Shown: piece by piece, positions 3,860 through 37,671 of the stretch | Layout: each line of letters starts with the position of its first letter | Numbering within the stretch: the stretch's first letter is position 1 | Sequence record: MN850581.1 | DNA length: 42,446 nt | DNA from: Escherichia phage sortkaff | Direction: 5' to 3' (one strand) | Translations under genes and position numbers: made by a program | The notes under the pieces: generated by a model | Database searches by the model: none | What the model saw: the letters and a program-made list of their open reading frames with translations, nothing else | Told to the model about the DNA's origin: nothing

Positions 3860-3966
3860 TTTCGTTTCTCCTCTGGGGGTCGGCGATGTTGCCGCCCTAT
3901 GTGATATAAGATAAACACTTTCGGGCGGCATGTCCAGAGAAATATCACGAAAAGATTAAATTATTT

Positions 3967-4631: not shown

Positions 4632-5081
4632 GTAACGAAACCGTTACAGCTTGAGAATGTTACACACGATCGCGATTAACAGCGTTAACCCTGCGCCGTA
4701 GACTGCGAAACATATCCAGAGAAATGTCCACGATCCGACGGCTTCCCGGAGTGGTGTTTCCTGCTCCGGCGATGTTCTCCCTCGCGCTTTCCGGGAGGGG
4801 AATTTTATCACGTTAATAGTATGCTCCTTTGCATCACGTTTCAATGATAATTATGTGTGGAAATGGTCGGGGGTTTTGGGGTTTTAACCCCCGGCAAAAT
4901 CCCCGCCGTAACACTCAAAAAATACCCGTTACCGGAATGGCTGTAAGTTACTGAATATCATCGGTAACATTGTCGGTGTAACAGTGTTACCTTTTTGAAA
5001 CTTCGGAGCCACTGGGTAACGGTAACATAAATATATACCCCCTTTAGGGGGTATATGTTATGTAACCCGTGACCGTTACCA
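4632..5081. repeat. cluster of GTAAC/GTTAC iteron-like repeats and palindromes in a roughly 480-bp largely non-coding region
   Basis: About 13 GTAAC/GTTAC pentamers in about 450 bp: palindrome GTAACGAAACCGTTAC (4632-4647), CGGTAACAttgtCGGTGTAACAGTGTTAC (4962-4990), GGTAACGGTAAC (5015-5026), GTAACccgtgaccGTTAC (5062-5079). Also a 10-bp-arm palindrome ATATACCCCC-TTTA-GGGGGTATAT (5033-5056) and hairpin CGGGGGTT/AACCCCCG (4868-4893). Confidence 0.6.
4816..4844 (-). promoter_or_regulatory. sigma70-like promoter (-35 TTGAAA, 17-bp spacer, -10 TACTAT) with CGTGAT in the spacer and again just after the -10
   Basis: Minus-strand reading TTGAAA-CGTGATgcaaaggagca-TACTAT-taaCGTGAT; would drive the downstream early small genes (4611 leftward). 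Confidence 0.4.
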
Positions 5082-5094
5082 GGAAATGTGACCG

Positions 5095-6753
5095 TTAAAA
5101 ATCGTTAAGATCGTCGGCCCCGTCGTCGGCTTTATTGCCCCAGTCAGTCGGGCGCGGATCGTTATCCTTTATCCCACCCAGGAGCGGGATCGCTTCGTTC
5201 ATGGCGGTGAGCGTTTCGTCCCCGGCCATCTTGATCAGGATCTGCTTTTTGGTGGCATGTTCAAAGGCGCGATGGAATTGCATCTTGTCCATCGGGTCGT
5301 CGGTCCCGGTGCGCGCCCAGTCCGATAACATGCCTTTGGTAAGTTTCGGCGTCCGGTAGTTCTTTTCCTTTCGCGTCAGGTTGTACTCGTGGACAAACTG
5401 CGCCAGCCGGAGGGCGTTCTCCTGCGTCCGGCTCACCTTCTGCGCTGCGGCCTTCTCCTCGTCCGCGCCTGCGTCCTGTTTCACCAGCTCCGGCTCGTTG
5501 ATAACGATCAGGGTCGTGTCATTGCTGCCGATGTGCCACGCGGCGGGGCCGTCCTTCCCAGGTGCGGACATGCGCGCCATTGCGTCGCGTTTGGCCTTGA
5601 CCAGCTCCGGCGGGAGTTTAACGGACTTCGTGCGGAATGCGCGCCGCTCCAGCATGGCGGAGCCTTTGGCTTTGGTGTGATCGAATACGAACAAATCGCG
5701 GTCCTTGTGCTTCGAGAGCGTGATCTCAAAGGCGGAGTTAGCCTTGAGGGCAGACGCCCCACGTCCGCCGCGCGTTGCGTCCTTCCCGGAGTGGTGGAGG
5801 ATCACCACGGCACAGTCCAGCGCCTCGGCCAGCTTCTGCGCGTTGGCTAACAGGATCGCCGCCTGGTCGTTGTTGTTCTCGGTGAATGGCTCGCCGCCCA
5901 CCCAGCGCCCCGGCTCGTTGTCCTTCGGTTCGCGCCACTGCTCGCCGATCTTCTGGCCTGCGGAGTTGGCGCTATAGGTATCGATCACGACCAGCGCGGG
6001 CTTGTTGCCCTCCAGCTCGAAGAACGGGGAGGCGTTGAATTTGGCCGCGAATTTCATCAGCTCGCGCTCCCGGTGCAACGGTACGGGCTGCGCGATGATA
6101 AACAGGTTATCAAGCGGCTTGTTTTTGTTCTGGCTGTATACCCAGCCCGCATAGCGCTCTTTCACGCCGTCGGCGTCCTCTGGCGCGAAGTACAGCACGG
6201 AGCCTTTACGGACGGGCAAGCCCCCGAAGTGGTGGCCCTTCGCCACGCAGATAGCCATCTGGAGCGCACAAAACGTTTTCTTTGCCCCGGACTCGCCGAC
6301 CAGGAAGCCCACGGACCGCTCCGGGATCAGGTTCTGGATCACGAAGTTGATAACACGCGGGGCGCTGGCCTCCCGGAGCTTGTCCAGAAATTCGTCCGGC
6401 TGCTCCGCCAGCATGGCCTTAATTTTCGCCAGGTCACGCTCGCGGCGCTCCTCGGTGGTCAGGCTGCGCGGCATCATGGCGGGCTGGTTGTCCTCGTCCA
6501 GTACCATGTCCCACTCGTGATCCGCTTCGTTTGTGCCGAAGTGGTAGAGCTGCACGTCCTCTAACGTCATTCCCTGCTCTGCGGCTGCGTCCTCGTCGAT
6601 CGCCATCTGTCGGGCCAGCTCGTCCTCGCTCATTCCCGGCGAAGTCTCCAGCCATTCCGGCGGCTGCTCCAGAGGCCCGTCGTCTGGGAGGATCTGGTCG
6701 AGTAGCTCCTCTTTGCTCGGCTCCTGCTGGTCGTCTCTTTCGTCTTGGATCAT
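5095..6753 (-). CDS. RepA-like / RecA-fold (AAA_25-like) replication ATPase, putative replicative helicase or initiator
   Basis: 552-aa ORF with a degenerate P-loop VGESGAKKTFCALQMAICVAKG followed by hydrophobic-Asp Walker B (ALVVIDTYS) and an ILHHSGK motif; RBS AAGGAAAG; flanked on both sides by GTAAC repeats. Confidence 0.6.
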   Translation of the reverse strand: MIQDERDDQQEPSKEELLDQILPDDGPLEQPPEWLETSPGMSEDELARQMAIDEDAAAEQGMTLEDVQLYHFGTNEADHEWDMVLDEDNQPAMMPRSLTTEERRERDLAKIKAMLAEQPDEFLDKLREASAPRVINFVIQNLIPERSVGFLVGESGAKKTFCALQMAICVAKGHHFGGLPVRKGSVLYFAPEDADGVKERYAGWVYSQNKNKPLDNLFIIAQPVPLHRERELMKFAAKFNASPFFELEGNKPALVVIDTYSANSAGQKIGEQWREPKDNEPGRWVGGEPFTENNNDQAAILLANAQKLAEALDCAVVILHHSGKDATRGGRGASALKANSAFEITLSKHKDRDLFVFDHTKAKGSAMLERRAFRTKSVKLPPELVKAKRDAMARMSAPGKDGPAAWHIGSNDTTLIVINEPELVKQDAGADEEKAAAQKVSRTQENALRLAQFVHEYNLTRKEKNYRTPKLTKGMLSDWARTGTDDPMDKMQFHRAFEHATKKQILIKMAGDETLTAMNEAIPLLGGIKDNDPRPTDWGNKADDGADDLNDF

Positions 6754-6790
6754 ACTGCTTTCCTTAAATCATGGTAACGTTGTCGGTAAC

Positions 6791-6819
6791 AATGTACCCC
6801 CGACGCGTTACCCGGTCAA
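6791..6819 (-). promoter_or_regulatory. leftward promoter for the RepA-like gene (-35 TTGACC, 17-bp spacer, -10 TACATT)
   Basis: Back-to-back with the rightward promoter. The predicted transcript start falls inside two direct GGTAAC repeats (6773-6778 and 6785-6790, 12-bp period) that sit between promoter and RBS. Confidence 0.4.
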
Positions 6820-6842: not shown

Positions 6843-6871
6843 TTTACATCATGGTTTCATTGTTCTAATGT
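6843..6871 (+). promoter_or_regulatory. rightward early promoter (-35 TTTACA, 17-bp spacer, -10 TAATGT) with upstream A-tract
   Basis: TTTACA-tcatggtttcattgttc-TAATGT preceded by caaagaaaaaac; downstream RBS GGAGG 5 nt before the ATG at 6898. Confidence 0.5.
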
Positions 6872-6897: not shown

Positions 6898-7353
6898 ATG
6901 GACCTGTTCAAAGACGAGCCGCGCGCCCCACTTCGGGCCAACGTGGCGCAACGTAAGACGCCAGCGGAGAGAATGCTGGAGATACTGGAAAAGGTTAAGC
7001 CGTCCGATCTCTCCATTCAGGACGCCATCGATCGCGGTGTACTCGATCCGTTTGGTGTAACGCAGGAAGTCCGGGACGCTTTCGCCCGGTTAAAACCGTC
7101 GGAGCAAATCTTCGCCGCGTTCTGGGGCGTTGCTGGTGTGGACAGTAAGGCATTGCTGGCCCTATGCCGACACGCCGCATTCATGGAGCGCGACGGACTG
7201 CTCCGCGATCTCAAAGTGGACAAGGAGCTGATCGCCTGCCCGGTGTCAGACTCCGACGGACTCGACGACGTGATCCCCCCAGGGGCGCCAGTCGGGCCGG
7301 AATTAGCCGCCGCTGCGTTGCGGTGTAAGCAGGCGTTACGGAGTGAGAAATGA
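6898..7353 (+). CDS. hypothetical protein (first gene of rightward early operon)
   Basis: 151 aa from the second in-frame ATG; the first ATG at 6868 lies inside the predicted -10 hexamer and lacks an RBS. Confidence 0.65.
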   Translation: MDLFKDEPRAPLRANVAQRKTPAERMLEILEKVKPSDLSIQDAIDRGVLDPFGVTQEVRDAFARLKPSEQIFAAFWGVAGVDSKALLALCRHAAFMERDGLLRDLKVDKELIACPVSDSDGLDDVIPPGAPVGPELAAAALRCKQALRSEK

Positions 7354-7553: not shown

Positions 7554-8294
7554 ATGTTTATCGCCGTGAAAAAACATAACAGGCCCGTATTTTTGAACGT
7601 GAACGAGATCAAGATCATTCGCGACGCGGAGCCGGATATCCACAACCCGGACTATGATCCGAAGATCCACCCCGGCAGTGTGATTTTTACCACGACCGAT
7701 CAGCACAGTACGCTTGAGCGGTATTTCTCCAGCATGTCGCCGGAGGACCTGCGGGACGTGATCAACGATGCCGCCGCCCAGGTTTACGCGGCTCCTATCG
7801 CCGCCCGGATCATGAGCCTGGACAATTGCGTGGCCCGCCTGGCCCGGTCTATGGAGGACTGGCTGGAGCTGGCAAACACGCCGATCATTAACGGCGAGGA
7901 TCTGGACGTCCAGCGCATACTCGACGAGACAAAGCAGACGCTGGACAGCATCCAGCCGCGCCTCGTCGCTGGTGGTTCGCCCGGTAAGCCCCGGCATTTT
8001 GTCGGGCTGGACTCGGACGTGTTTAACGTGGTTCAGCTCCTCACGTCGCACGAGTGGGCCGATCACTGCACCAGTACGCAGTTAGGCCAGCGCCTGGAGT
8101 CGGCGATCACGGACCTGCATAACCACACCAGCGAGATCCGCCAGCGTAAGGACCGGGCGGAGGAGCTGCTGGCCGAAGTGTGGCACGAGTGGAATAACGA
8201 CGACGCCACGCGGAAAGCGCTCGGCGAGGATATGGGGAAAGTTATCGGGAATTTTTTGTGGCCCGATGAAAATAAAACTTGTGAGAAAGAATAA
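7554..8294 (+). CDS. hypothetical protein (246 aa)
   Basis: ORF with RBS GAGGAGA upstream; ATG immediately after the upstream stop. Confidence 0.7.
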   Translation: MFIAVKKHNRPVFLNVNEIKIIRDAEPDIHNPDYDPKIHPGSVIFTTTDQHSTLERYFSSMSPEDLRDVINDAAAQVYAAPIAARIMSLDNCVARLARSMEDWLELANTPIINGEDLDVQRILDETKQTLDSIQPRLVAGGSPGKPRHFVGLDSDVFNVVQLLTSHEWADHCTSTQLGQRLESAITDLHNHTSEIRQRKDRAEELLAEVWHEWNNDDATRKALGEDMGKVIGNFLWPDENKTCEKE

Positions 8295-8307
8295 ATCACG
8301 ATATAGT
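8279..8307 (+). promoter_or_regulatory. sigma70-like promoter (-35 TTGTGA, 17-bp spacer, -10 TATAGT) with ATCACGA in the spacer, followed by a GC hairpin
   Basis: TTGTGA-gaaagaataaATCACGA-TATAGT; the -35 overlaps the last codons of the upstream gene; hairpin GCCGGGG-aatgg-CCCCGGC at 8317-8335 lies in the leader. Confidence 0.4.
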
Positions 8308-8354
8308 TAAGTTGTCGCCGGGGAATGGCCCCGGCAATAACGGAGATTAAGACG

Positions 8355-8637: not shown

Positions 8638-8985
8638 ATGACAACAATCATTTACGCCTTACCTAAGCGCACATCACACGCGCGCACGTCTCGATCCACG
8701 CCACTGATCAGCCGTAAAAATTACAGCCTGATTACAGTCGGCGAGCTGGTGAAGTCCACGCCGAAAGGGAAGAAAATTATCCCGCTCTGGTACAACAATC
8801 CGCGCCCCCAGTTTTTCGGGAGCGACTCTTATCACTTTTTCGATAACGTCAAAGACGCGGCGGAGCATATCCGGCACGAGCTGGCCGGGACGTACAAACT
8901 TCTTAACGATCAGGCGAAGTTTATCGCGGAGCTGATCGAGGAGGCGGATCAGATCTACATATCAGCCACGGATCCAACGGCATGA
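8638..8985 (+). CDS. hypothetical protein
   Basis: 115-aa ORF with RBS GGAG (cacccaGGAGcaagccATG). Confidence 0.65.
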   Translation: MTTIIYALPKRTSHARTSRSTPLISRKNYSLITVGELVKSTPKGKKIIPLWYNNPRPQFFGSDSYHFFDNVKDAAEHIRHELAGTYKLLNDQAKFIAELIEEADQIYISATDPTA

Positions 8986-9203
8986 TCCCGGCGGACATTC
9001 AGCGCAAGGCTAAAAAGGTCCTCCAGCGCCACCTCGCCGGGGAGATTAAGCCCCGGAAGCTGGTCGGCGGTCTGGGCCTCGCGCTGGAGGTTGGTTATCG
9101 CTGGCGGCTGCTGTCACGCGATAAGGGCCAGACGTGGGATCTCATGTCCCACGAGAAGTACAACAAACTTACACGGGGCAAAAAGCCCCCTAAAATGAGA
9201 TGA
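8982..9203 (+). CDS. hypothetical small basic protein
   Basis: 73-aa ORF; start overlaps the upstream stop (ATGA). Confidence 0.55.
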   Translation: MIPADIQRKAKKVLQRHLAGEIKPRKLVGGLGLALEVGYRWRLLSRDKGQTWDLMSHEKYNKLTRGKKPPKMR

Positions 9204-12051: not shown

Positions 12052-12151
12052 ACAGTGCTAATGATACGGCGTAACCAATTGCGGCCCATGCTGCCGCGCT
12101 GGCGGCGATTACGGCCCAGATTACATAGCGGTGTCCGCGTAAGTCTTTCAT
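12050..12151 (-). CDS. putative 33-aa single-TM peptide
   Basis: MKDLRGHRYVIWAVIAASAAAWAAIGYAVSLAL; ATG overlaps the upstream stop (ATGA); immediately followed by a terminator. Not listed in the ORF track because it is short. Confidence 0.4.
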   Translation of the reverse strand: MKDLRGHRYVIWAVIAASAAAWAAIGYAVSLAL

Positions 12152-12543
12152 TTGAATTTCCCCTCTCTCTTGAATTTCATGATCCGCCCACGAAGGGACG
12201 GGACAGTTTTGCCTAACCAGTTGGCGACGTGCGCGTGGGTCAGCTCGTCCGGGACTACCACGCCGCGCCCGGTGGAGATCACCAGCTCGTCCAGGTCTGC
12301 CTCGGTCAGCTCGTGCTCCAGGAAGCGTAGGAGCCTGCTATCCTCCCCGGTGGTCCATTCCGTATAGGTCCGGTTGAATGCCAGCGACACGCCCAGCTCC
12401 GACGCCCGGACCTGCATCTGGCGGAAGTTGCGCCCGATTTTCTTTGCCAGCTCCTCGCGTGGCATGGTCCCGGCCAGGCGGATCAGCTCCGCGTCCTGCG
12501 CGTCAGTCCATCCGATAATTTCCGCTGTTACTTTACCCATCAT
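12148..12543 (-). CDS. hypothetical protein with two helix-turn-helix-like repeats
   Basis: 131 aa from ATGATG preceded by AAGGGGGA; the longer six-frame ORF (to 12840) overlaps upstream genes and its N-terminal part is Gly/Arg-rich, so is probably not translated. Confidence 0.6.
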   Translation of the reverse strand: MMGKVTAEIIGWTDAQDAELIRLAGTMPREELAKKIGRNFRQMQVRASELGVSLAFNRTYTEWTTGEDSRLLRFLEHELTEADLDELVISTGRGVVVPDELTHAHVANWLGKTVPSLRGRIMKFKREGKFK

Positions 12544-13298: not shown

Positions 13299-13329
13299 TT
13301 CGTTTTCCTCGCTGGTTGGTGTGAGAAAG

Positions 13330-13358
13330 AATATAACAAAGGATAAATGGGGCCGCAA
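13330..13358 (-). promoter_or_regulatory. sigma70-like promoter (-35 TTGCGG, 17-bp spacer, -10 TATATT) for the small-gene operon
   Basis: Minus-strand reading TTGCGG-ccccatttatcctttgt-TATATT; CGTGAT at 13377-13382 upstream; overlaps the 13-mer GTGAGAAAGAATA (plus 13321-13333). Confidence 0.4.
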
Positions 13359-13380
13359 GGATTATTTTAATTATTTCGTG

Positions 13381-13410
13381 ATAAAAGAGAAAAGGCCCCG
13401 GAGTGGGGCC
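13381..13410 (-). terminator. rho-independent terminator after the Dam operon
   Basis: Minus-strand stem GGCCCC-actcc-GGGGCC followed by UUUUCUCUUUUAU. Confidence 0.7.
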
Positions 13411-15483: not shown

Positions 15484-15512
15484 AACATAATGGAAGCGTG
15501 ATTTTATTTCAA
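15484..15512 (-). promoter_or_regulatory. sigma70-like promoter for the Dam operon (-35 TTGAAA, 17-bp spacer, -10 TATGTT) with ATCACGCTTCC in the spacer
   Basis: Minus-strand reading TTGAAA-taaaATCACGCTTCCat-TATGTT-aATTGCG; closely matches the promoter at 2220..2248; RBS AAAGGA before the Dam ATG. Confidence 0.45.
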
Positions 15513-16429: not shown

Positions 16430-16497
16430 GTTGTCCTCCGGTTAATTCTGCATTACTATAAATCACGCTTTAATGATATTACAAGGAATAAAAAGGC

Positions 16498-18999: not shown

Positions 19000-19028
19000 T
19001 TGCGAACATCACGAAAGCATGATATAAA
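19000..19028 (+). promoter_or_regulatory. sigma70-like promoter (-35 TTGCGA, 17-bp spacer, -10 TATAAA) with ATCACGA in the spacer
   Basis: TTGCGA-acATCACGAaagcatga-TATAAA upstream of the exonuclease gene. Confidence 0.45.
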
Positions 19029-21427: not shown

Positions 21428-21868
21428 ATGAAACAATGTACAATCTGCAAAGAGCTTAAGCCGCTGGAGGCGTTCCACAGAAACCGGAGCAAAAAGGACG
21501 GGCGTGACTGCCGCTGTAGCGCCTGCAAAAACGCGAAGGGCCGGAGCTACTACCACGCCGATCCAGTGCGCAAAGAGAAGATCATCGCCAGCGTAAAGGC
21601 ATACCAGGCCGGACCGGGACGCGAGCTGGCAAACGCCACAAAGTCGGCATACCACACGCGACACGCCAAAAAGCGGCGCGCTCATAATCTGGTCTATAAC
21701 GCGTTAAGGCGCGGGGACCTCGTGAAAAGCCCGTGTGAGTGTTGCGGGGAGTTAAAGGTGGTAGGGCATCACGACGACTACGATCGCCCGTTAGACGTGC
21801 GCTGGCTTTGCGAGAGGCATCACAAGGAATGGCATCGGCTCCACGGGGAAGCCTTAAATCCCGATTGA
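21428..21868 (+). CDS. HNH endonuclease
   Basis: 146 aa; N-terminal CTIC ... CRCSAC zinc knuckle and C-terminal HNH core CECCG ... HH ... N ... WLCERHH. Confidence 0.7.
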   Translation: MKQCTICKELKPLEAFHRNRSKKDGRDCRCSACKNAKGRSYYHADPVRKEKIIASVKAYQAGPGRELANATKSAYHTRHAKKRRAHNLVYNALRRGDLVKSPCECCGELKVVGHHDDYDRPLDVRWLCERHHKEWHRLHGEALNPD

Positions 21869-21893
21869 CGTAAATCACTAACTAATTAATAAT
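21865..21893 (+). promoter_or_regulatory. sigma70-like promoter (-35 TTGACG, 17-bp spacer, -10 AATAAT) with AATCAC repeats
   Basis: TTGACG-taaATCACtaactaatt-AATAAT-cACGGAG; upstream of the XRE regulator gene; ATCACG spans the -10/+1 junction. Confidence 0.4.
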
Positions 21894-21910
21894 CACGGAG
21901 ACGTTAACAA

Positions 21911-22138
21911 ATGTTGGAGCCTATGATGGCACAGAAACTTAAGCCCGTTTGCCTCGTGAAAGAAGTCCGCGAGGCGAAGGGCGTAAAACAGAAAGATTTA
22001 GCGGACGCGACGGGCATCCTCCAGCAACGTTTAAGCTGCTATGAGAACGGCCACGAGCTGCCGTCTGTAACTAACCTCTGCCGCCTGGCTATGGCGTTGG
22101 ATGTTTCCATTAACGATCTGATCGAGTACGGGGTGTAA
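21911..22138 (+). CDS. XRE-family helix-turn-helix transcriptional regulator (Cro/CI-type)
   Basis: 75-aa ORF; HTH signature QKDLADATGILQQRLSCYENG; most likely start is the ATG at 21926 (GGAG 6 nt upstream). Confidence 0.7.
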   Translation: MLEPMMAQKLKPVCLVKEVREAKGVKQKDLADATGILQQRLSCYENGHELPSVTNLCRLAMALDVSINDLIEYGV

Positions 22139-22139
22139 A

Positions 22140-22514
22140 TTGAGCGATATCGACGGCATCAAAACGATCGAGGCGATTGTGGACATTATCGCCCGCACTT
22201 TCCACGAGGCTAATCGCGCCTATTGCCAGGCACTGGGCGACGATAGTCAAAAGAGCTGGGACGAGGCCCCGGAGTGGCAGCGGGAGAGCGCCCGTAACGG
22301 CGTACTGTTCCACCTTAACGGCGATCACGGCCCGGAAGCCAGTCACGAGTCCTGGCTGGCTGAGAAGCGCGCACAGGGCTGGAAATATGGCCCGGTTAAG
22401 GATGCCGAAGCGAAAGAGCATCCTTGCTTTGTGCCTTATAGCGAGCTGCCGCCGGAGCAAAAAGCGAAAGATTACATTTTCCGCGCGATCGTCCACGCGC
22501 TCGGCAAAGCGTAA
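22140..22514 (+). CDS. hypothetical protein, RyR-domain-like
   Basis: 124 aa, apparent TTG start; motifs SHESWLAEKRAQGWKYGPVKD and HPCFVPYSELPPEQKAKD recalled as typical of phage RyR-domain proteins. Confidence 0.55.
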   Translation: MSDIDGIKTIEAIVDIIARTFHEANRAYCQALGDDSQKSWDEAPEWQRESARNGVLFHLNGDHGPEASHESWLAEKRAQGWKYGPVKDAEAKEHPCFVPYSELPPEQKAKDYIFRAIVHALGKA

Positions 22515-27991: not shown

Positions 27992-29308
27992 TTAAAGCCC
28001 CTCCGGTAAAAATCCGAATTTTGCCTTAAATTGCTCTTTACGGGTAGGGGTAGGCTCCGCATAAAGTGCATCGATCGCCGCCTGCGCATTTTGAACGGGC
28101 ATCCCCCCAGCCGAAAGCTGGCCGACTGCTGCGGTCTTGCTGTCGTCGATCGCAATGTCGCGCTTGTACGCTTCGACGCGCCCGCCCTGCGATTTCTCGA
28201 TCGCGTCCTTGCCTTTGCTGAGGGCGTCAACGTAGCGCTGCATGACGTCTTTTAGCTGCTGCTCGCTCATGGTTCGCGGGTCTGCGCTGATCAGTGCCTG
28301 AGCTGCGGCGCGGCCCTCCTGCTCGGTTACGGGGCCAGTACCGCGCAAAGCCTGAATACCCGCGACGCGGGCCTGGTCTTTCATCTGGTTAAACTGGTTC
28401 ATGATTTCCGCCGTAGCGTCACCGCCACCAGTGGCCGCACTCCATGCCCTGTTACCCAGACCGTTGATCCCGGTAACGAAGCCCAGATCCTTACGCTCAA
28501 GCAAGCGTTTCGCCTGGTCGATCGCCGTGTCGATCGGCGCGAGCGTGGTCTGGTACGTCTGGAGAAAATCGCGTTTCGTGTTGAGCTGGTCGGCCTGCAT
28601 CTTGCTTTGTTGCTGGAGCAATTTCGAGCGCTCAATGTCGTTTTTCTCCTGAGAGATCCGCGTGTTAAGGCGCTCCGTTTGCAGACCGATGTAACGGAGG
28701 TTACGGTCCGCCGCGTTACTGGCCGCCGTGACGTCCTGGCCCCGGATCGTGGTCTGGTTCTTCATGACCTCTTTCGCGTAGTCCAGTTGATCCTTGCTGG
28801 TATTGCTCGCCAGGTGGAGCGCCTGCACGGAGCGACGGAAGCCGTCCGGGTCGGTCGCTGCGGCCTGATAGGCTTTCTGCGGGTCGATACCCAGCGCCTT
28901 AAGCGCGTCCGCGTTCTGCTGGACAAACTGCTGGGTCTGCTCCGGCCCCTGCGAGAGCGCGACGTCTGCCTGGCTGGCGAGCTGCGCGCCCTGCTGCTGG
29001 CGGATCCCGTCCATCATGCCTAAGCGCTTTTGTAGCGCCTCGATCTGGTTCGGGTACTTGTACGCCAGCGCCTGCAATTTCGACGGATCACCCTGCGCGG
29101 CCTGCCAGTCAGCATTGAATTGCTTCATTTGCTCCTGTTGCTGCTGGGCGGCCTGCATTGCCATTCCCTGCTGTCGGTTCTGGATCGCCGCTGCGGTGTT
29201 CTGCTGGATCTGGCCGTAGTTGTTTAGCGTGTCCTGCGCGCCCTGCTGAATGATCCCGATATTCTGCGCGAAGGATCCAACGTTGGGATCAGTGCCGAAA
29301 ATAGCCAT
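27992..29308 (-). CDS. ejection protein (P22 gp20-like by position and size), Gln-rich coiled coil
   Basis: 438-aa ORF contiguous with neighbours; Q-rich helical sequence; assignment by synteny only. Confidence 0.6.
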   Translation of the reverse strand: MAIFGTDPNVGSFAQNIGIIQQGAQDTLNNYGQIQQNTAAAIQNRQQGMAMQAAQQQQEQMKQFNADWQAAQGDPSKLQALAYKYPNQIEALQKRLGMMDGIRQQQGAQLASQADVALSQGPEQTQQFVQQNADALKALGIDPQKAYQAAATDPDGFRRSVQALHLASNTSKDQLDYAKEVMKNQTTIRGQDVTAASNAADRNLRYIGLQTERLNTRISQEKNDIERSKLLQQQSKMQADQLNTKRDFLQTYQTTLAPIDTAIDQAKRLLERKDLGFVTGINGLGNRAWSAATGGGDATAEIMNQFNQMKDQARVAGIQALRGTGPVTEQEGRAAAQALISADPRTMSEQQLKDVMQRYVDALSKGKDAIEKSQGGRVEAYKRDIAIDDSKTAAVGQLSAGGMPVQNAQAAIDALYAEPTPTRKEQFKAKFGFLPEGL

Positions 29309-36148: not shown

Positions 36149-36615
36149 AATGGTATGTCCAGCGGCTTGTCGTTGTTGGCCGGAGGAACGATCTCGGCGT
36201 CCTCCACGTCCTCCGCTTTGCGCGGGTTCACTTCGCGGGCTGCGTCCGCTGCGGCCACAAAATCGCCCTCCAGCGGCCCCTTGTAGGTCAGTTGTTTAAT
36301 GCTGGCGATATCTGCGAGGAGCTTCGACTCTGCCACTACAAAGTCGGCGCGGAGTTTCTGGAGTCCGGCTTCCATGATCGGGAGGCTGATCTCTGCCTGC
36401 TCCTCGGCGGTCGGCATGGTGTAATCAATATCGATCTCGATCTCTTTTAACAGGACGTAAGCCGCATTTTTGCCGCCTGAATTAATATGCTCCTGGACGC
36501 CCCAGATCGCGCCGTAATCGTAACTTTCCACGGACACGGATCCGCGCTTGTCGCCGCCCTGGCTACCTTCGGCCACGCAAAGGCAAACGTACATTGTTTT
36601 TTTGATAGTTGGCAT
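36145..36615 (-). CDS. hypothetical protein (cassette gene C)
   Basis: 156-aa ORF; RBS AAGAGGA; no recognisable motif. Confidence 0.65.
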   Translation of the reverse strand: MPTIKKTMYVCLCVAEGSQGGDKRGSVSVESYDYGAIWGVQEHINSGGKNAAYVLLKEIEIDIDYTMPTAEEQAEISLPIMEAGLQKLRADFVVAESKLLADIASIKQLTYKGPLEGDFVAAADAAREVNPRKAEDVEDAEIVPPANNDKPLDIPF

Positions 36616-37132: not shown

Positions 37133-37570
37133 TTATGCGTTGCCCTGCGCCTGAGCGGCCAGGAGCTGGATAATCGGCTCCACGTCGGCCTCCGCCGCCG
37201 GGATAGGCAGGTCAACCACGCCGCGCGGCTCGCCTTTGGAAATGTGGAATTTCCAGATCGCCATCACGTCGTCCAGCGAGTAGCCCGCCAGGATCTCCTC
37301 GTGGATCTTCTGCGCGCCGTTGGTTTCGTTAAACTCCAGGACCTGATCAACGGTCGGCATCTGGTTCCCGAATTTCGCCATTGTGCGGGCCATGACGACC
37401 ACGCCGACGCCACGGGACAGGAAGGTGTTACCCTGCTCGCCGCCGGAAACCATCACGGCGATCTCCGGCTCGTCGGTGTTCGGGTGGTAGGCAAGGGCGA
37501 GGGTAACGAAGCCGCCGCGCGGGGTGACTTCGAAAACGCGAGCTGCTGGGGTGGTGGTGATCTCTTTCAT
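37133..37570 (-). CDS. hypothetical protein (cassette gene A)
   Basis: 145-aa ORF; RBS GAGAGAGGA; preceded by its own promoter and operator-like palindrome. Confidence 0.65.
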   Translation of the reverse strand: MKEITTTPAARVFEVTPRGGFVTLALAYHPNTDEPEIAVMVSGGEQGNTFLSRGVGVVVMARTMAKFGNQMPTVDQVLEFNETNGAQKIHEEILAGYSLDDVMAIWKFHISKGEPRGVVDLPIPAAEADVEPIIQLLAAQAQGNA

Positions 37571-37588: not shown

Positions 37589-37645
37589 ATCACGATAGCG
37601 TGATGTTGTGTGAGAAAGAATAGCCCGGACGTACCGGGCTGTAAA
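37589..37645 (-). promoter_or_regulatory. promoter (-35 TTTACA, 17-bp spacer, -10 TATTCT) plus 16-bp near-palindrome ATCACGATAGCGTGAT in the leader
   Basis: Minus-strand reading TTTACA-GCCCGGTACGTCCGGGC-TATTCT; the spacer is the portal terminator stem-loop; near-palindrome at plus 37589-37604 lies about +6 to +21. Confidence 0.45.
37611..37640 (-). terminator. rho-independent terminator after the portal gene
   Basis: Minus-strand stem AGCCCGG-uacgu-CCGGGCU followed by AUUCUUUCUC, about 30 nt after the portal stop. Confidence 0.55.
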
Positions 37646-37671
37646 GTGTTTTTTTACTGCTTTCGTTAAAA

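Follow-up and report, generated by a model that had tools for sequence, protein, structure and literature searches.

Escherichia phage sortkaff (MN850581.1), analysed here as one stretch of 42,446 bp with 59% G+C (the window), carries a 16-bp inverted repeat, ATCACG-N4-CGTGAT, in its intergenic DNA. The sites are real, non-random, dyad-symmetric, situated on core promoters and evolutionarily conserved. We consider it probable that at least 11 of them are operators for a dimer of a small helix-turn-helix (HTH) protein of the phage, most probably its 75-residue XRE protein, and they overlap or closely flank predicted promoters of early, replication/recombination and methyltransferase genes. Protein binding, the identity of the binder, the sign of regulation and its timing are all points that we infer from sequence, and every promoter named below is a match to the sigma-70 consensus rather than a mapped transcription start site.

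The window is a circularly permuted version of Klebsiella phage vB_KpnS_IME279 (Sortsnevirus), with 99% identity over the 5 kb tested, and is colinear with all mapped genes of the IME279 record; its structural module is P22-like, and the phage group is described in the literature as lytic podoviruses. The relatives compared were Kosakonia phage Kc237, Escherichia phage Sortsne and the Murrayviruses IME_EC2 and Lumpael, together with the more distant C130_2, Skarpretter and Kc166B (Kc237, IME_EC2, C130_2 and Skarpretter being labelled L002, L004, L006 and L007 in the comparison set). The host genera infected across these phages are Klebsiella, Escherichia, Kosakonia and Salmonella. A scan of viral contigs added L010, L013, L016 and L017, which fit the pattern of operators and recognition helices described below but belong to the same lineages.

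A 16-bp dyad on core promoters

The initial annotation had suggested, from ATCACG (complement CGTGAT) recurring in or near predicted promoters, that this hexamer is the half-site of a phage regulator. Every occurrence that it listed is present, as is the longer string ATCACGCTTCC shared by the copies at 2233 and 15497; the copy upstream of the helicase gene also exists, although it occupies 16462-16467 and so starts 2 nt away from the position 16464 originally assigned to it. Across the whole window and both strands there are 52 copies of ATCACG, compared with 22.4 +/- 4.8 in dinucleotide shuffles. An order-4 Markov model nevertheless expects 51.2 copies (rank 929 of 2080 hexamers), and shuffling synonymous codons within genes still leaves 26.2 +/- 4.3 copies against the 37 observed in coding DNA, the leftover coding excess being CGTGAT in frame 2 (xxC-GTG-ATx), a codon-pair effect. 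Because these two models account for it, the genome-wide excess is mostly compositional, and over-representation at this scale was rejected as evidence. Among the 39 copies classed as coding (coding regions 16.2-39.2 kb), 28 lie on the + strand, in the genes read rightwards (16.5-22.5 kb) as in those read leftwards (22.6-42 kb), so that this bias is independent of the direction of transcription; the numbers are small, and part of the bias is the codon pair GTG-ATC in leftward genes.

The hexamer does pass the comparison of intergenic with coding sequence that had been proposed as a check on it. Non-coding DNA, taken for this purpose as gaps +/-20 nt (4.6 kb), contains 14 copies, against 1.9 expected from local composition and 4.6 at the coding rate (p ~2e-8 before correction), and in an unbiased ranking of intergenic hexamers ATCACG stands second of 2080, behind GGCCCC, a stem word of rho-independent terminators. 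Words enriched together with it (AATGAT, GTGATA and AGCGTG) hinted at a partner arm. A search for ATCACG-N4-CGTGAT located a sole perfect copy, at 37589-37604; matches with three or fewer mismatches number 45 against 18.8 expected, and 8 of the 14 sites with two or fewer are intergenic, in a genome of which ~8% is non-coding. When all 5-nt arms with spacers of 0-10 nt were scanned without bias, ATCAC-N6-GTGAT ranked first in the window, above the terminator hairpins, with six of its seven sites between genes.

A first position-weight matrix was discarded: it combined AT-rich flanks with a GC-rich background and so favoured AT-rich sequence as such. The matrix used here covers the 16-bp core and was trained only on 11 intergenic sites of Sortsne and Kc237, the window being left out to avoid circularity; its background is the intergenic base composition, so that AT-richness earns nothing. 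It finds 11 sites of at least 12 bits in the non-coding DNA of the window (5.4 kb), where Markov shuffles yield 0.14 and none of 1000 reaches 11, and five in coding DNA (37 kb). The half-site proposal is strongly supported by these results: ATCACG is one arm of the dyad that heads the unbiased scan, that the relatives-trained matrix recovers at 11 sites and that is conserved at orthologous promoters. The operator consensus can be written (A)ATCACG-N4-CGTGAT(T), with the centres of the hexamer arms 10 bp apart and with ATAACG and ATCATG as allowed variants of the left arm, CGTTAT and CATGAT of the right.

Core elements are overlapped by these putative operators at the predicted promoters upstream of hyp50 (2248->2220), of the methyltransferase operon (15512->15484), of the primase gene (16484->16455), at the left end (4844->4816), of hyp46 (92->64), hyp05 (8279-8307) and the XRE gene (21865-21893), and at the exonuclease VIII (exoVIII) promoter. 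The site may begin 2, 3 or 4 nt past the -35 or cover either hexamer, and it also occurs at about +12 to +27 and ~18 nt upstream of a -35. The site in the spacer of the methyltransferase-operon promoter (15487-15502; 18.1 bits) reads on the - strand as TTGAAA, 4 nt and ATCACGCTTCCATTAT, includes the ATCACG copy at 15497-15502 and supplies with its final TAT the start of the -10 TATGTT; the orthologous sites are ATAATGGATTCGTGAT in Kc237 and TTAACGGATTCGTGAT in Sortsne, the centre being variable. The same register recurs in the spacer upstream of hyp50 (2223-2238, with ATCACG at 2233-2238; 19.9 bits), where TTGCAT, 4 nt and ATCACGCTTCCGTTAT follow one another on the - strand, with one dyad mismatch and with the last three bases beginning the -10 TATCTT; the Sortsne counterpart, ATAACGCTATCGTGAT, lies in a TTGCAT-N17-TATATT promoter.

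Between the divergent primase and helicase genes, which are separated by 68 bp, a single site, ATCACGCTTTAATGAT (16462-16477; 17.0 bits), fills the shared spacer of two overlapping, back-to-back promoters, that of the primase on the - strand (TTGTAA-N18-TATAGT) and that of the helicase on the + strand (ATTACT-N17-GATATT); it is conserved in Kc237, IME_EC2, Lumpael and L010. The highest score (20.1 bits) belongs to the promoter of exoVIII and the recombination operon, where ATCACGAAAGCATGAT (19008-19023, with ATCACG at 19008-19013 on the + strand) begins 2 nt after TTGCGA and overlaps the -10 TATAAA. In an alignment of this promoter from six phages the -35, both arms and the -10 are invariant, whilst the flanks diverge and the 4-nt centre varies; the window has a lone mismatch, in its right arm (CATGAT), Kc237 has its own in the left arm (ATCATG), and the Sortsne dyad is perfect. 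Retained arms, a variable centre and mismatches that swap arms form the pattern predicted by selection on a symmetric protein-binding site, and this is not what a spacer preference of RNA polymerase would predict. More generally, the dyad is found at orthologous promoters of Sortsne, Kc237, IME_EC2 and Lumpael, and the relaxed form TCAY-N6-RTGA is specific to intergenic DNA in seven of eight genomes (31 intergenic against 12 coding occurrences, although coding DNA is ~15-fold larger).

The perfect palindrome, ATCACGATAGCGTGAT (37589-37604; no mismatches, 19.7 bits), lies in the hyp42 leader, ~12-27 nt downstream of the -10 of a promoter-like site on the - strand (TTTACA-N17-TATTCT, 37645->37617) and after the terminator hairpin of the portal gene; at the orthologous place Kc237 has ATCATTGGTTCGTGAT and Skarpretter a perfect TTCACGACAACGTGAA. 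A variant second dyad is seen upstream of the -35 of this portal-gap promoter, TTAACGAAAGCAGTAA in the window (37654-37669) and ATAACGAATCCGTTAA in Kc237 (~32700). With one site upstream and the other in the leader, the promoter may accordingly be flanked on both sides, and looping between the two would then be conceivable. A string, (C)TTTCTCACAC(C/A), stands directly downstream of several -10s, namely those of the hyp15 and hyp42 promoters (~13320-13335 and 37606-37616 of the window, - strand) and of the exoVIII promoters of IME_EC2 (~10550) and Lumpael, and may be a conserved initial transcribed or leader element.

Four further sites lie over or beside a -35. At the left end of the window, the - strand of 4833-4848 (15.5 bits) reads ATCA-TTGAAA-CGTGAT and contains the -35 of a leftward promoter, with an extra half-site at 4807-4812, at about +1; the two ATCACG copies of the + strand, at 4807 and 4833, are CGTGAT twice on the promoter's own strand, and Sortsne has ATCACGAATCAATGAT at the corresponding end (41795). 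Upstream of hyp46, ATCACTGGACCGTTAT (74-89; 15.8 bits) overlaps the -35 and spacer of the - strand promoter, and the matching intergenic regions of Sortsne (36866), IME_EC2 (33868) and Lumpael (737) contain related sites. This promoter would drive a gene that wraps around the end of the window: positions 1 and 42446 meet in the 5' part of hyp46, which is orthologous to gp46 of IME279, and it follows that the window is an essentially complete, circularly permuted genome. Two weak sites complete the series, ATCATTCAAGCGCGAT upstream of hyp48 (852-867; three mismatches, 10.2 bits), which overlaps the -35 TTGAAT and whose orthologs in IME_EC2 and Lumpael, ATAACGCTTGCATGAT, are nearer the consensus, and ATCATGGTTTCATTGT at the hyp02 promoter (6848-6863; 11.7 bits), directly after the -35 TTTACA, which is conserved in Kc237 and Sortsne and replaced by ATCACTGTTACGTCAT in IME_EC2. 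Neither the matrix nor inspection of the sequence revealed an operator site at the promoter-like sequences that precede holin, scaffold and hyp36.

The XRE protein as candidate binder

The gene proposed to encode the operator-binding repressor lies at 21911-22138 (+ strand) and specifies 75 residues with the recognition helix GILQQRLSCYENG. Its product matches Pfam PF01381 HTH_3 (E = 2e-13, 50.6 bits against a cutoff of 23) and phrog_3, 'transcriptional repressor', of PHROGs, and is the only Pfam-recognisable HTH protein in the window. An AlphaFold model (mean predicted confidence, pLDDT, 86.7) has the five-helix XRE fold, to which the nearest solved folds are C.BclI and C.AhdI, followed by CylR2, SinR, DdrO and P22 c2, all of them dimeric regulators that act on dyad operators. 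In each of the eight phages the ortholog is likewise encoded where the rightward replication/recombination operon ends. The open reading frame that follows (22140-22514, + strand) encodes a RyR domain (PF02026, E = 2e-12).

The earlier remark that the promoter of the XRE gene itself carries the motif holds, with two weaker sites present between 21874 and 21907 around a TTGACG-N17-AATAAT promoter. The first, ATCACTAACTAATTAA (21874-21889; 12.1 bits), lies in the spacer; the second, ATCACGGAGACGTTAA (21892-21907; 15.9 bits), spans the -10, the start region and the sequence up to the ribosome-binding site, its ATCACG (21892-21897, + strand) overlapping the end of the -10. The second site is identical in the window, Sortsne, IME_EC2 and Lumpael, and its overlap with the ribosome-binding site could explain part of this conservation. 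By their position, the two sites fit autoregulation.

A second line of evidence is that the start of the recognition helix falls into four classes across the phages, and these track the cis element. The Sortsneviruses combine the helix ILQQRLSC with ATCACG..CGTGAT, and the Murrayviruses MI(A/P)HQLSR with ATCAY..RTGAT, in which the inner positions are A-rich. C130_2, L016 and Skarpretter have IAERQLSR and (T/C)TCAY..RTGA(A/G), the perfect Skarpretter copy lying where the perfect copy of the window does. Kc166B and L017, with VDVHQLSR, are without such a dyad and have GTTAAC instead, of which Kc166B holds ten intergenic copies against 0.8 expected, and which occurs also in the spacer of the exoVIII promoter. 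The AERQ and DVHQ classes are each represented by at least two independent phages. A word-indexed search for XRE proteins with the same helix returned only four proteins, judged by identity to be of the same group, and an exhaustive search returned multi-HTH proteins and one protein of Murrayvirus type; neither yielded a same-helix XRE protein from outside this phage group. On this good, if circumstantial, evidence the XRE protein is probably the binder.

Several observations weigh against this interpretation of the sites and of their reader. Three members of the catalogue have a single good half-site. The weakest case for function is ATCACGATATAGTTAA at the hyp05 promoter (8295-8310, with ATCACG at 8295-8300 on the + strand; 15.3 bits), which overlaps the -10 TATAGT but has a good left half-site only and is not conserved in Kc237, where the sequence is ACAACGATAGTATTAAG. 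The site at 13367-13382 (- strand, with ATCACG at 13377-13382; 14.3 bits) has a poor partner arm and does not reach the core of the hyp15 promoter (TTGCGG-N17-TATATT), from whose -35 it is separated by ~18 nt on the upstream side; it comes just after the terminator of methyltransferase-16. The string cttttATCACGaaataattaaaa is identical in all three Sortsneviruses, and in the other genera a TAGCA-N5-TGCTA dyad is found there. The third, at 3944-3959 (10.1 bits), is a half-site in a 35-nt AT-rich gap between two small leftward open reading frames, for which no ortholog was found; CGTGATATT on its - strand may form a TGn-type -10. The correspondence between helix and site is also imperfect: C130_2 and Skarpretter share an identical helix 3 and have somewhat unlike sites (TCAT-rich and TCAC-rich, respectively), and the Murrayviruses keep ATCAY arms with a helix 3 unlike that of the Sortsneviruses. 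The searchable literature on these genera yielded no promoter or operator analysis and no binding or expression data. Finally, ~25 small open reading frames of the window have neither a Pfam match nor a PHROG function and might include an unrecognised DNA binder, and a second candidate regulator, hyp13, is present in all eight phages and is strongly diverged in C130_2, Skarpretter and Kc166B, where the motif differs too. As hyp13 is likewise most diverged where the motif differs, covariation does not single out the XRE protein.

Alternative readings

These last points lead to the alternative that survives best, which we regard as the less probable but give some weight, namely that the dyad is a real operator bound by another phage protein, either hyp13 or a small protein without a detectable family, whilst the XRE protein does something else. 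The 130-residue hyp13 (12148-12540, - strand) matches phrog_323, 'transcriptional regulator, D5-like', with E = 1.2e-16, and has no Pfam match. Its identity to the Murrayvirus orthologs (75%, 65%) is, however, about the same as that to the Sortsnevirus ones (76%, 72%), whereas motif usage follows the genus split, as does XRE identity (93%, 88% against 73%, 71%). Inspected by eye, without profile confirmation, hyp13 appears to consist of two tandem Myb-like repeats (W-T-x-x-x-D-x-x-L), an architecture commoner at asymmetric sites than at 16-bp palindromes, and the pair of sites at the XRE gene's own promoter fits autoregulation. It may be that hyp13 is a late-gene regulator.

It is improbable that the dyad is the site of a host enterobacterial transcription factor that the phage exploits or that restricts it. 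The several host genera share many regulators, and the arms resemble well-known half-sites, TATCAC of lambda and TGTGA/TCACA of CRP, the latter in the opposite arrangement; we know of no host factor that recognises TCAC-N6-GTGA in this arm order. Yet Sortsne, Skarpretter and C130_2 all grow on E. coli and have ATCACG, TTCACG and TCAT forms, respectively. Arm sequences that differ between sister genera on the same E. coli K-12 host, at the same promoters, disfavour a host factor, which would hold the motif constant.

The initial annotation had itself raised the possibility that the motif merely belongs to an extended -10 preferred by the host polymerase, and an intrinsic promoter element of this kind, in the spacer or extended -10, is in our view very unlikely. 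The right arm does place TGAT at the TGn position in three promoters, caTGATATAAA (exoVIII), aaTGATATTAC (helicase) and cGTGATATT (3944), and the two best examples, 2233 and 15497, share the register of -35 plus 4 nt. Nevertheless, TG lies 1 nt before the -10 at those three sites only (19008, 16462 and 3944), and the left arm has no counterpart in an extended -10. The register moreover varies from upstream of the -35 to about +27, the element is dyad-symmetric with mismatches that swap arms between phages, the perfect copy at 37589 lies outside the core promoter, and the equivalent promoter positions are occupied by other sequences in sister genera with the same hosts. An extended -10 or spacer element was therefore rejected as a general explanation, on the grounds of variable register and dyad symmetry.

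That the motif is a chance or compositional artefact, or an RNA hairpin, is scarcely credible: the 52 genome-wide copies are predicted fully by pentamer content and largely by codon usage, and the perfect copy can form a 6-bp hairpin (-5.2 kcal/mol), but the intergenic dyad is conserved at orthologous positions and a chance origin is refuted by the enrichment, the dyad scan and the matrix, whilst the remaining sites fold at 0 to -0.7 kcal/mol and mostly lie in untranscribed spacers, for which reason the hairpin was rejected.

Proposed regulation and its setting

The preferred reading, a dimer of the XRE protein on dispersed operators, points towards repression. Activation of the MerR type from within a spacer needs over-long spacers and a different fold, so that a dimer placed on the spacer or a hexamer of a sigma-70 promoter with 17-18-bp spacing could only repress; with sites between, over or just past the -35 and -10, it would exclude or block the host RNA polymerase. 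In the mechanism that we propose, the host polymerase would fire these consensus-like promoters upon infection, and the XRE protein would accumulate, its gene, at the far end of the rightward replication operon, having a promoter of its own. The protein would then lower transcription of the early, replication/recombination and methyltransferase genes, the stronger sites (17-20 bits) responding more readily, and would limit its own synthesis through its two weaker ones (12 and 16 bits). At the 37589 leader site it might act as a roadblock or occlude a downstream-shifted start.

The elements of a repressor-operator pair of the Cro/CI type are present, namely an HTH_3 protein, a dyad within the 14-18-bp range with half-sites about one helical turn apart, overlap with core promoters and sites at the protein's own promoter. 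The operators of lambda OR and OL are 17 bp long with the consensus TATCACCGCCGGTGATA, and those of 434 and P22 are of like kind. Shared with such lambdoid systems are dyads of ~16-17 bp over sigma-70 core elements, small HTH_3-type dimers as their readers (here proposed), graded affinities (here bit scores) and autoregulation (likewise proposed here); the arm ATCAC/GTGAT is the lambda consensus arm, and the structural neighbours of the XRE model include P22 c2. Unlike in lambda, however, the gap between arms is 6 nt instead of 5, single sites are spread over at least 11 promoters genome-wide instead of triplets at two operators, and the recognition helix LQQRLSC is not that of CI or Cro. Nor does the window contain a lambdoid immunity region, in that it has just one small HTH gene, located where the replication operon ends, and no tripartite operators; a second repressor, an S24 peptidase domain and an integrase were absent from the IME279 annotation and from family scans of the window.

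The controller (C) proteins of restriction-modification systems are closer in sequence and structure: C.AhdI, C.BclI and C.Esp1396I are the closest solved sequences (E = 9e-5 to 1.5e-4), and C proteins give the top Foldseek matches (root-mean-square deviation ~1 Å over 54 residues). Like the XRE protein, they are single-domain HTH_3 proteins of ~75-80 residues and, as is proposed for it, act as autoregulating dimers on core-promoter dyads, but they control one operon, comprising their own gene and the endonuclease, through paired operators, whereas the sites described here lie over many promoters and no restriction endonuclease is linked to the XRE gene. The C-box consensus (GACT..AGTC type) is unrelated to the ATCACG dyad. 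In having one regulator with many scattered sites, some in promoters and some downstream (as at 37589), the arrangement recalls P1 C1 and the 'stoperators' of mycobacteriophage L5 gp71, the sites of which are, in contrast, asymmetric and maintain lysogeny, whereas those of the window are palindromic and in an apparently strictly lytic phage.

Small HTH repressors that adjust the transcription of phage or host genes have precedents among strictly lytic phages in TgrL of phiCbK, of the XRE family (PMC10688885), and in the MerR-like Gp36 of mycobacteriophage D29 (PMC12266134). They differ from the present case in that TgrL targets mostly host genes and pairs with host paralogs and Gp36 binds GC-rich direct repeats instead of a palindromic dyad; neither has a palindromic operator on most of its own phage's early and middle promoters.

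A second intergenic dyad, (A/T)TAGCA-N5-TGCTA(A/T), occurs at six to seven sites each in IME_EC2 (59-75, 4742-4758, 7052-7068, 28251-28267, 36214-36230 and 37522-37538), C130_2 (1330, 3761, 4737, 10695, 13842, 34798 and 37100) and Skarpretter (1, 3967, 24176, 35076, 35712 and 36885), and is absent from the window. At the sole promoter measured, upstream of the hyp15 ortholog of IME_EC2, its centre is near -43 and the -35 is poor, an activator-like position; in the window, Sortsne and Kc237, by contrast, the corresponding promoters combine good -35 hexamers with ATCACG sites. The sequence ATAGCACnnnTTGCTAAA may also fit the MarA/SoxS/Rob marbox consensus. Just one protein family separates the two groups: each of the five relatives outside Sortsnevirus has it, and none of the three Sortsneviruses does. 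Its members are small acidic proteins (71-82 residues, no Pfam match) encoded between a methyltransferase gene and rusA (L004:5518-5751, L005:14394-14618, L006:11743-11958, L007:989-1237 and L008:8348-8590, all on the - strand), and the family could be a partner of the TAGCA dyad, perhaps as a co-activator.

Two features of the window stand apart from either dyad. Repeats of the GGTAAC/GTTACC type are dense in the intergenic DNA at 4850-5094 and 6760-6800, flanking repA (5095-6753), with GGTAAC occurring 9 times, CGTTAC 9, CCGTTA 10 and GTAACA 8, and a long AT-flanked G/C hairpin, ATATACCCCCTAAAGGGGGTATAT, lies at 5033-5056, near this gene for an AAA-ATPase RepA; judged by their sequence, the repeats and hairpin look like iterons or a replication origin. 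A 73-residue open reading frame at 8982-9203 (+ strand) encodes a ParE-like toxin domain (PF24732, E = 1e-19); no antitoxin for it is evident from the annotation.

A broader proposal, which we advance tentatively and hold to be possible rather than probable, is that almost the whole early and middle programme of a strictly lytic P22-like podovirus is under one 75-residue XRE repressor with at least 11 dispersed palindromic operators, one of which would silence the primase and helicase promoters together, and that this regulon expanded in Sortsnevirus as the second promoter-proximal system, TAGCA-N5-TGCTA, was lost, a dyad that co-occurs with the small acidic protein. What the window contains is most likely an ordinary kind of gene switch that is new for this phage group; the mechanism is familiar, and the value of the finding is chiefly annotational and comparative. 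For the Sortsnevirus and Murrayvirus phages, which are isolated for therapy and biocontrol directed at Klebsiella, E. coli, Salmonella and Kosakonia, the finding provides a first regulatory map. It names a candidate regulator together with its targets, and it suggests two classes of promoter, one with operators, before replication, recombination, methyltransferase and unknown early genes, and one operator-free, before holin, scaffold and hyp36; the compact repressor-operator pair, with its graded natural variants, might be reusable as a genetic part. The broader proposal, if true, would allow a rewiring of regulation to be traced between sister genera of phages that share their hosts.

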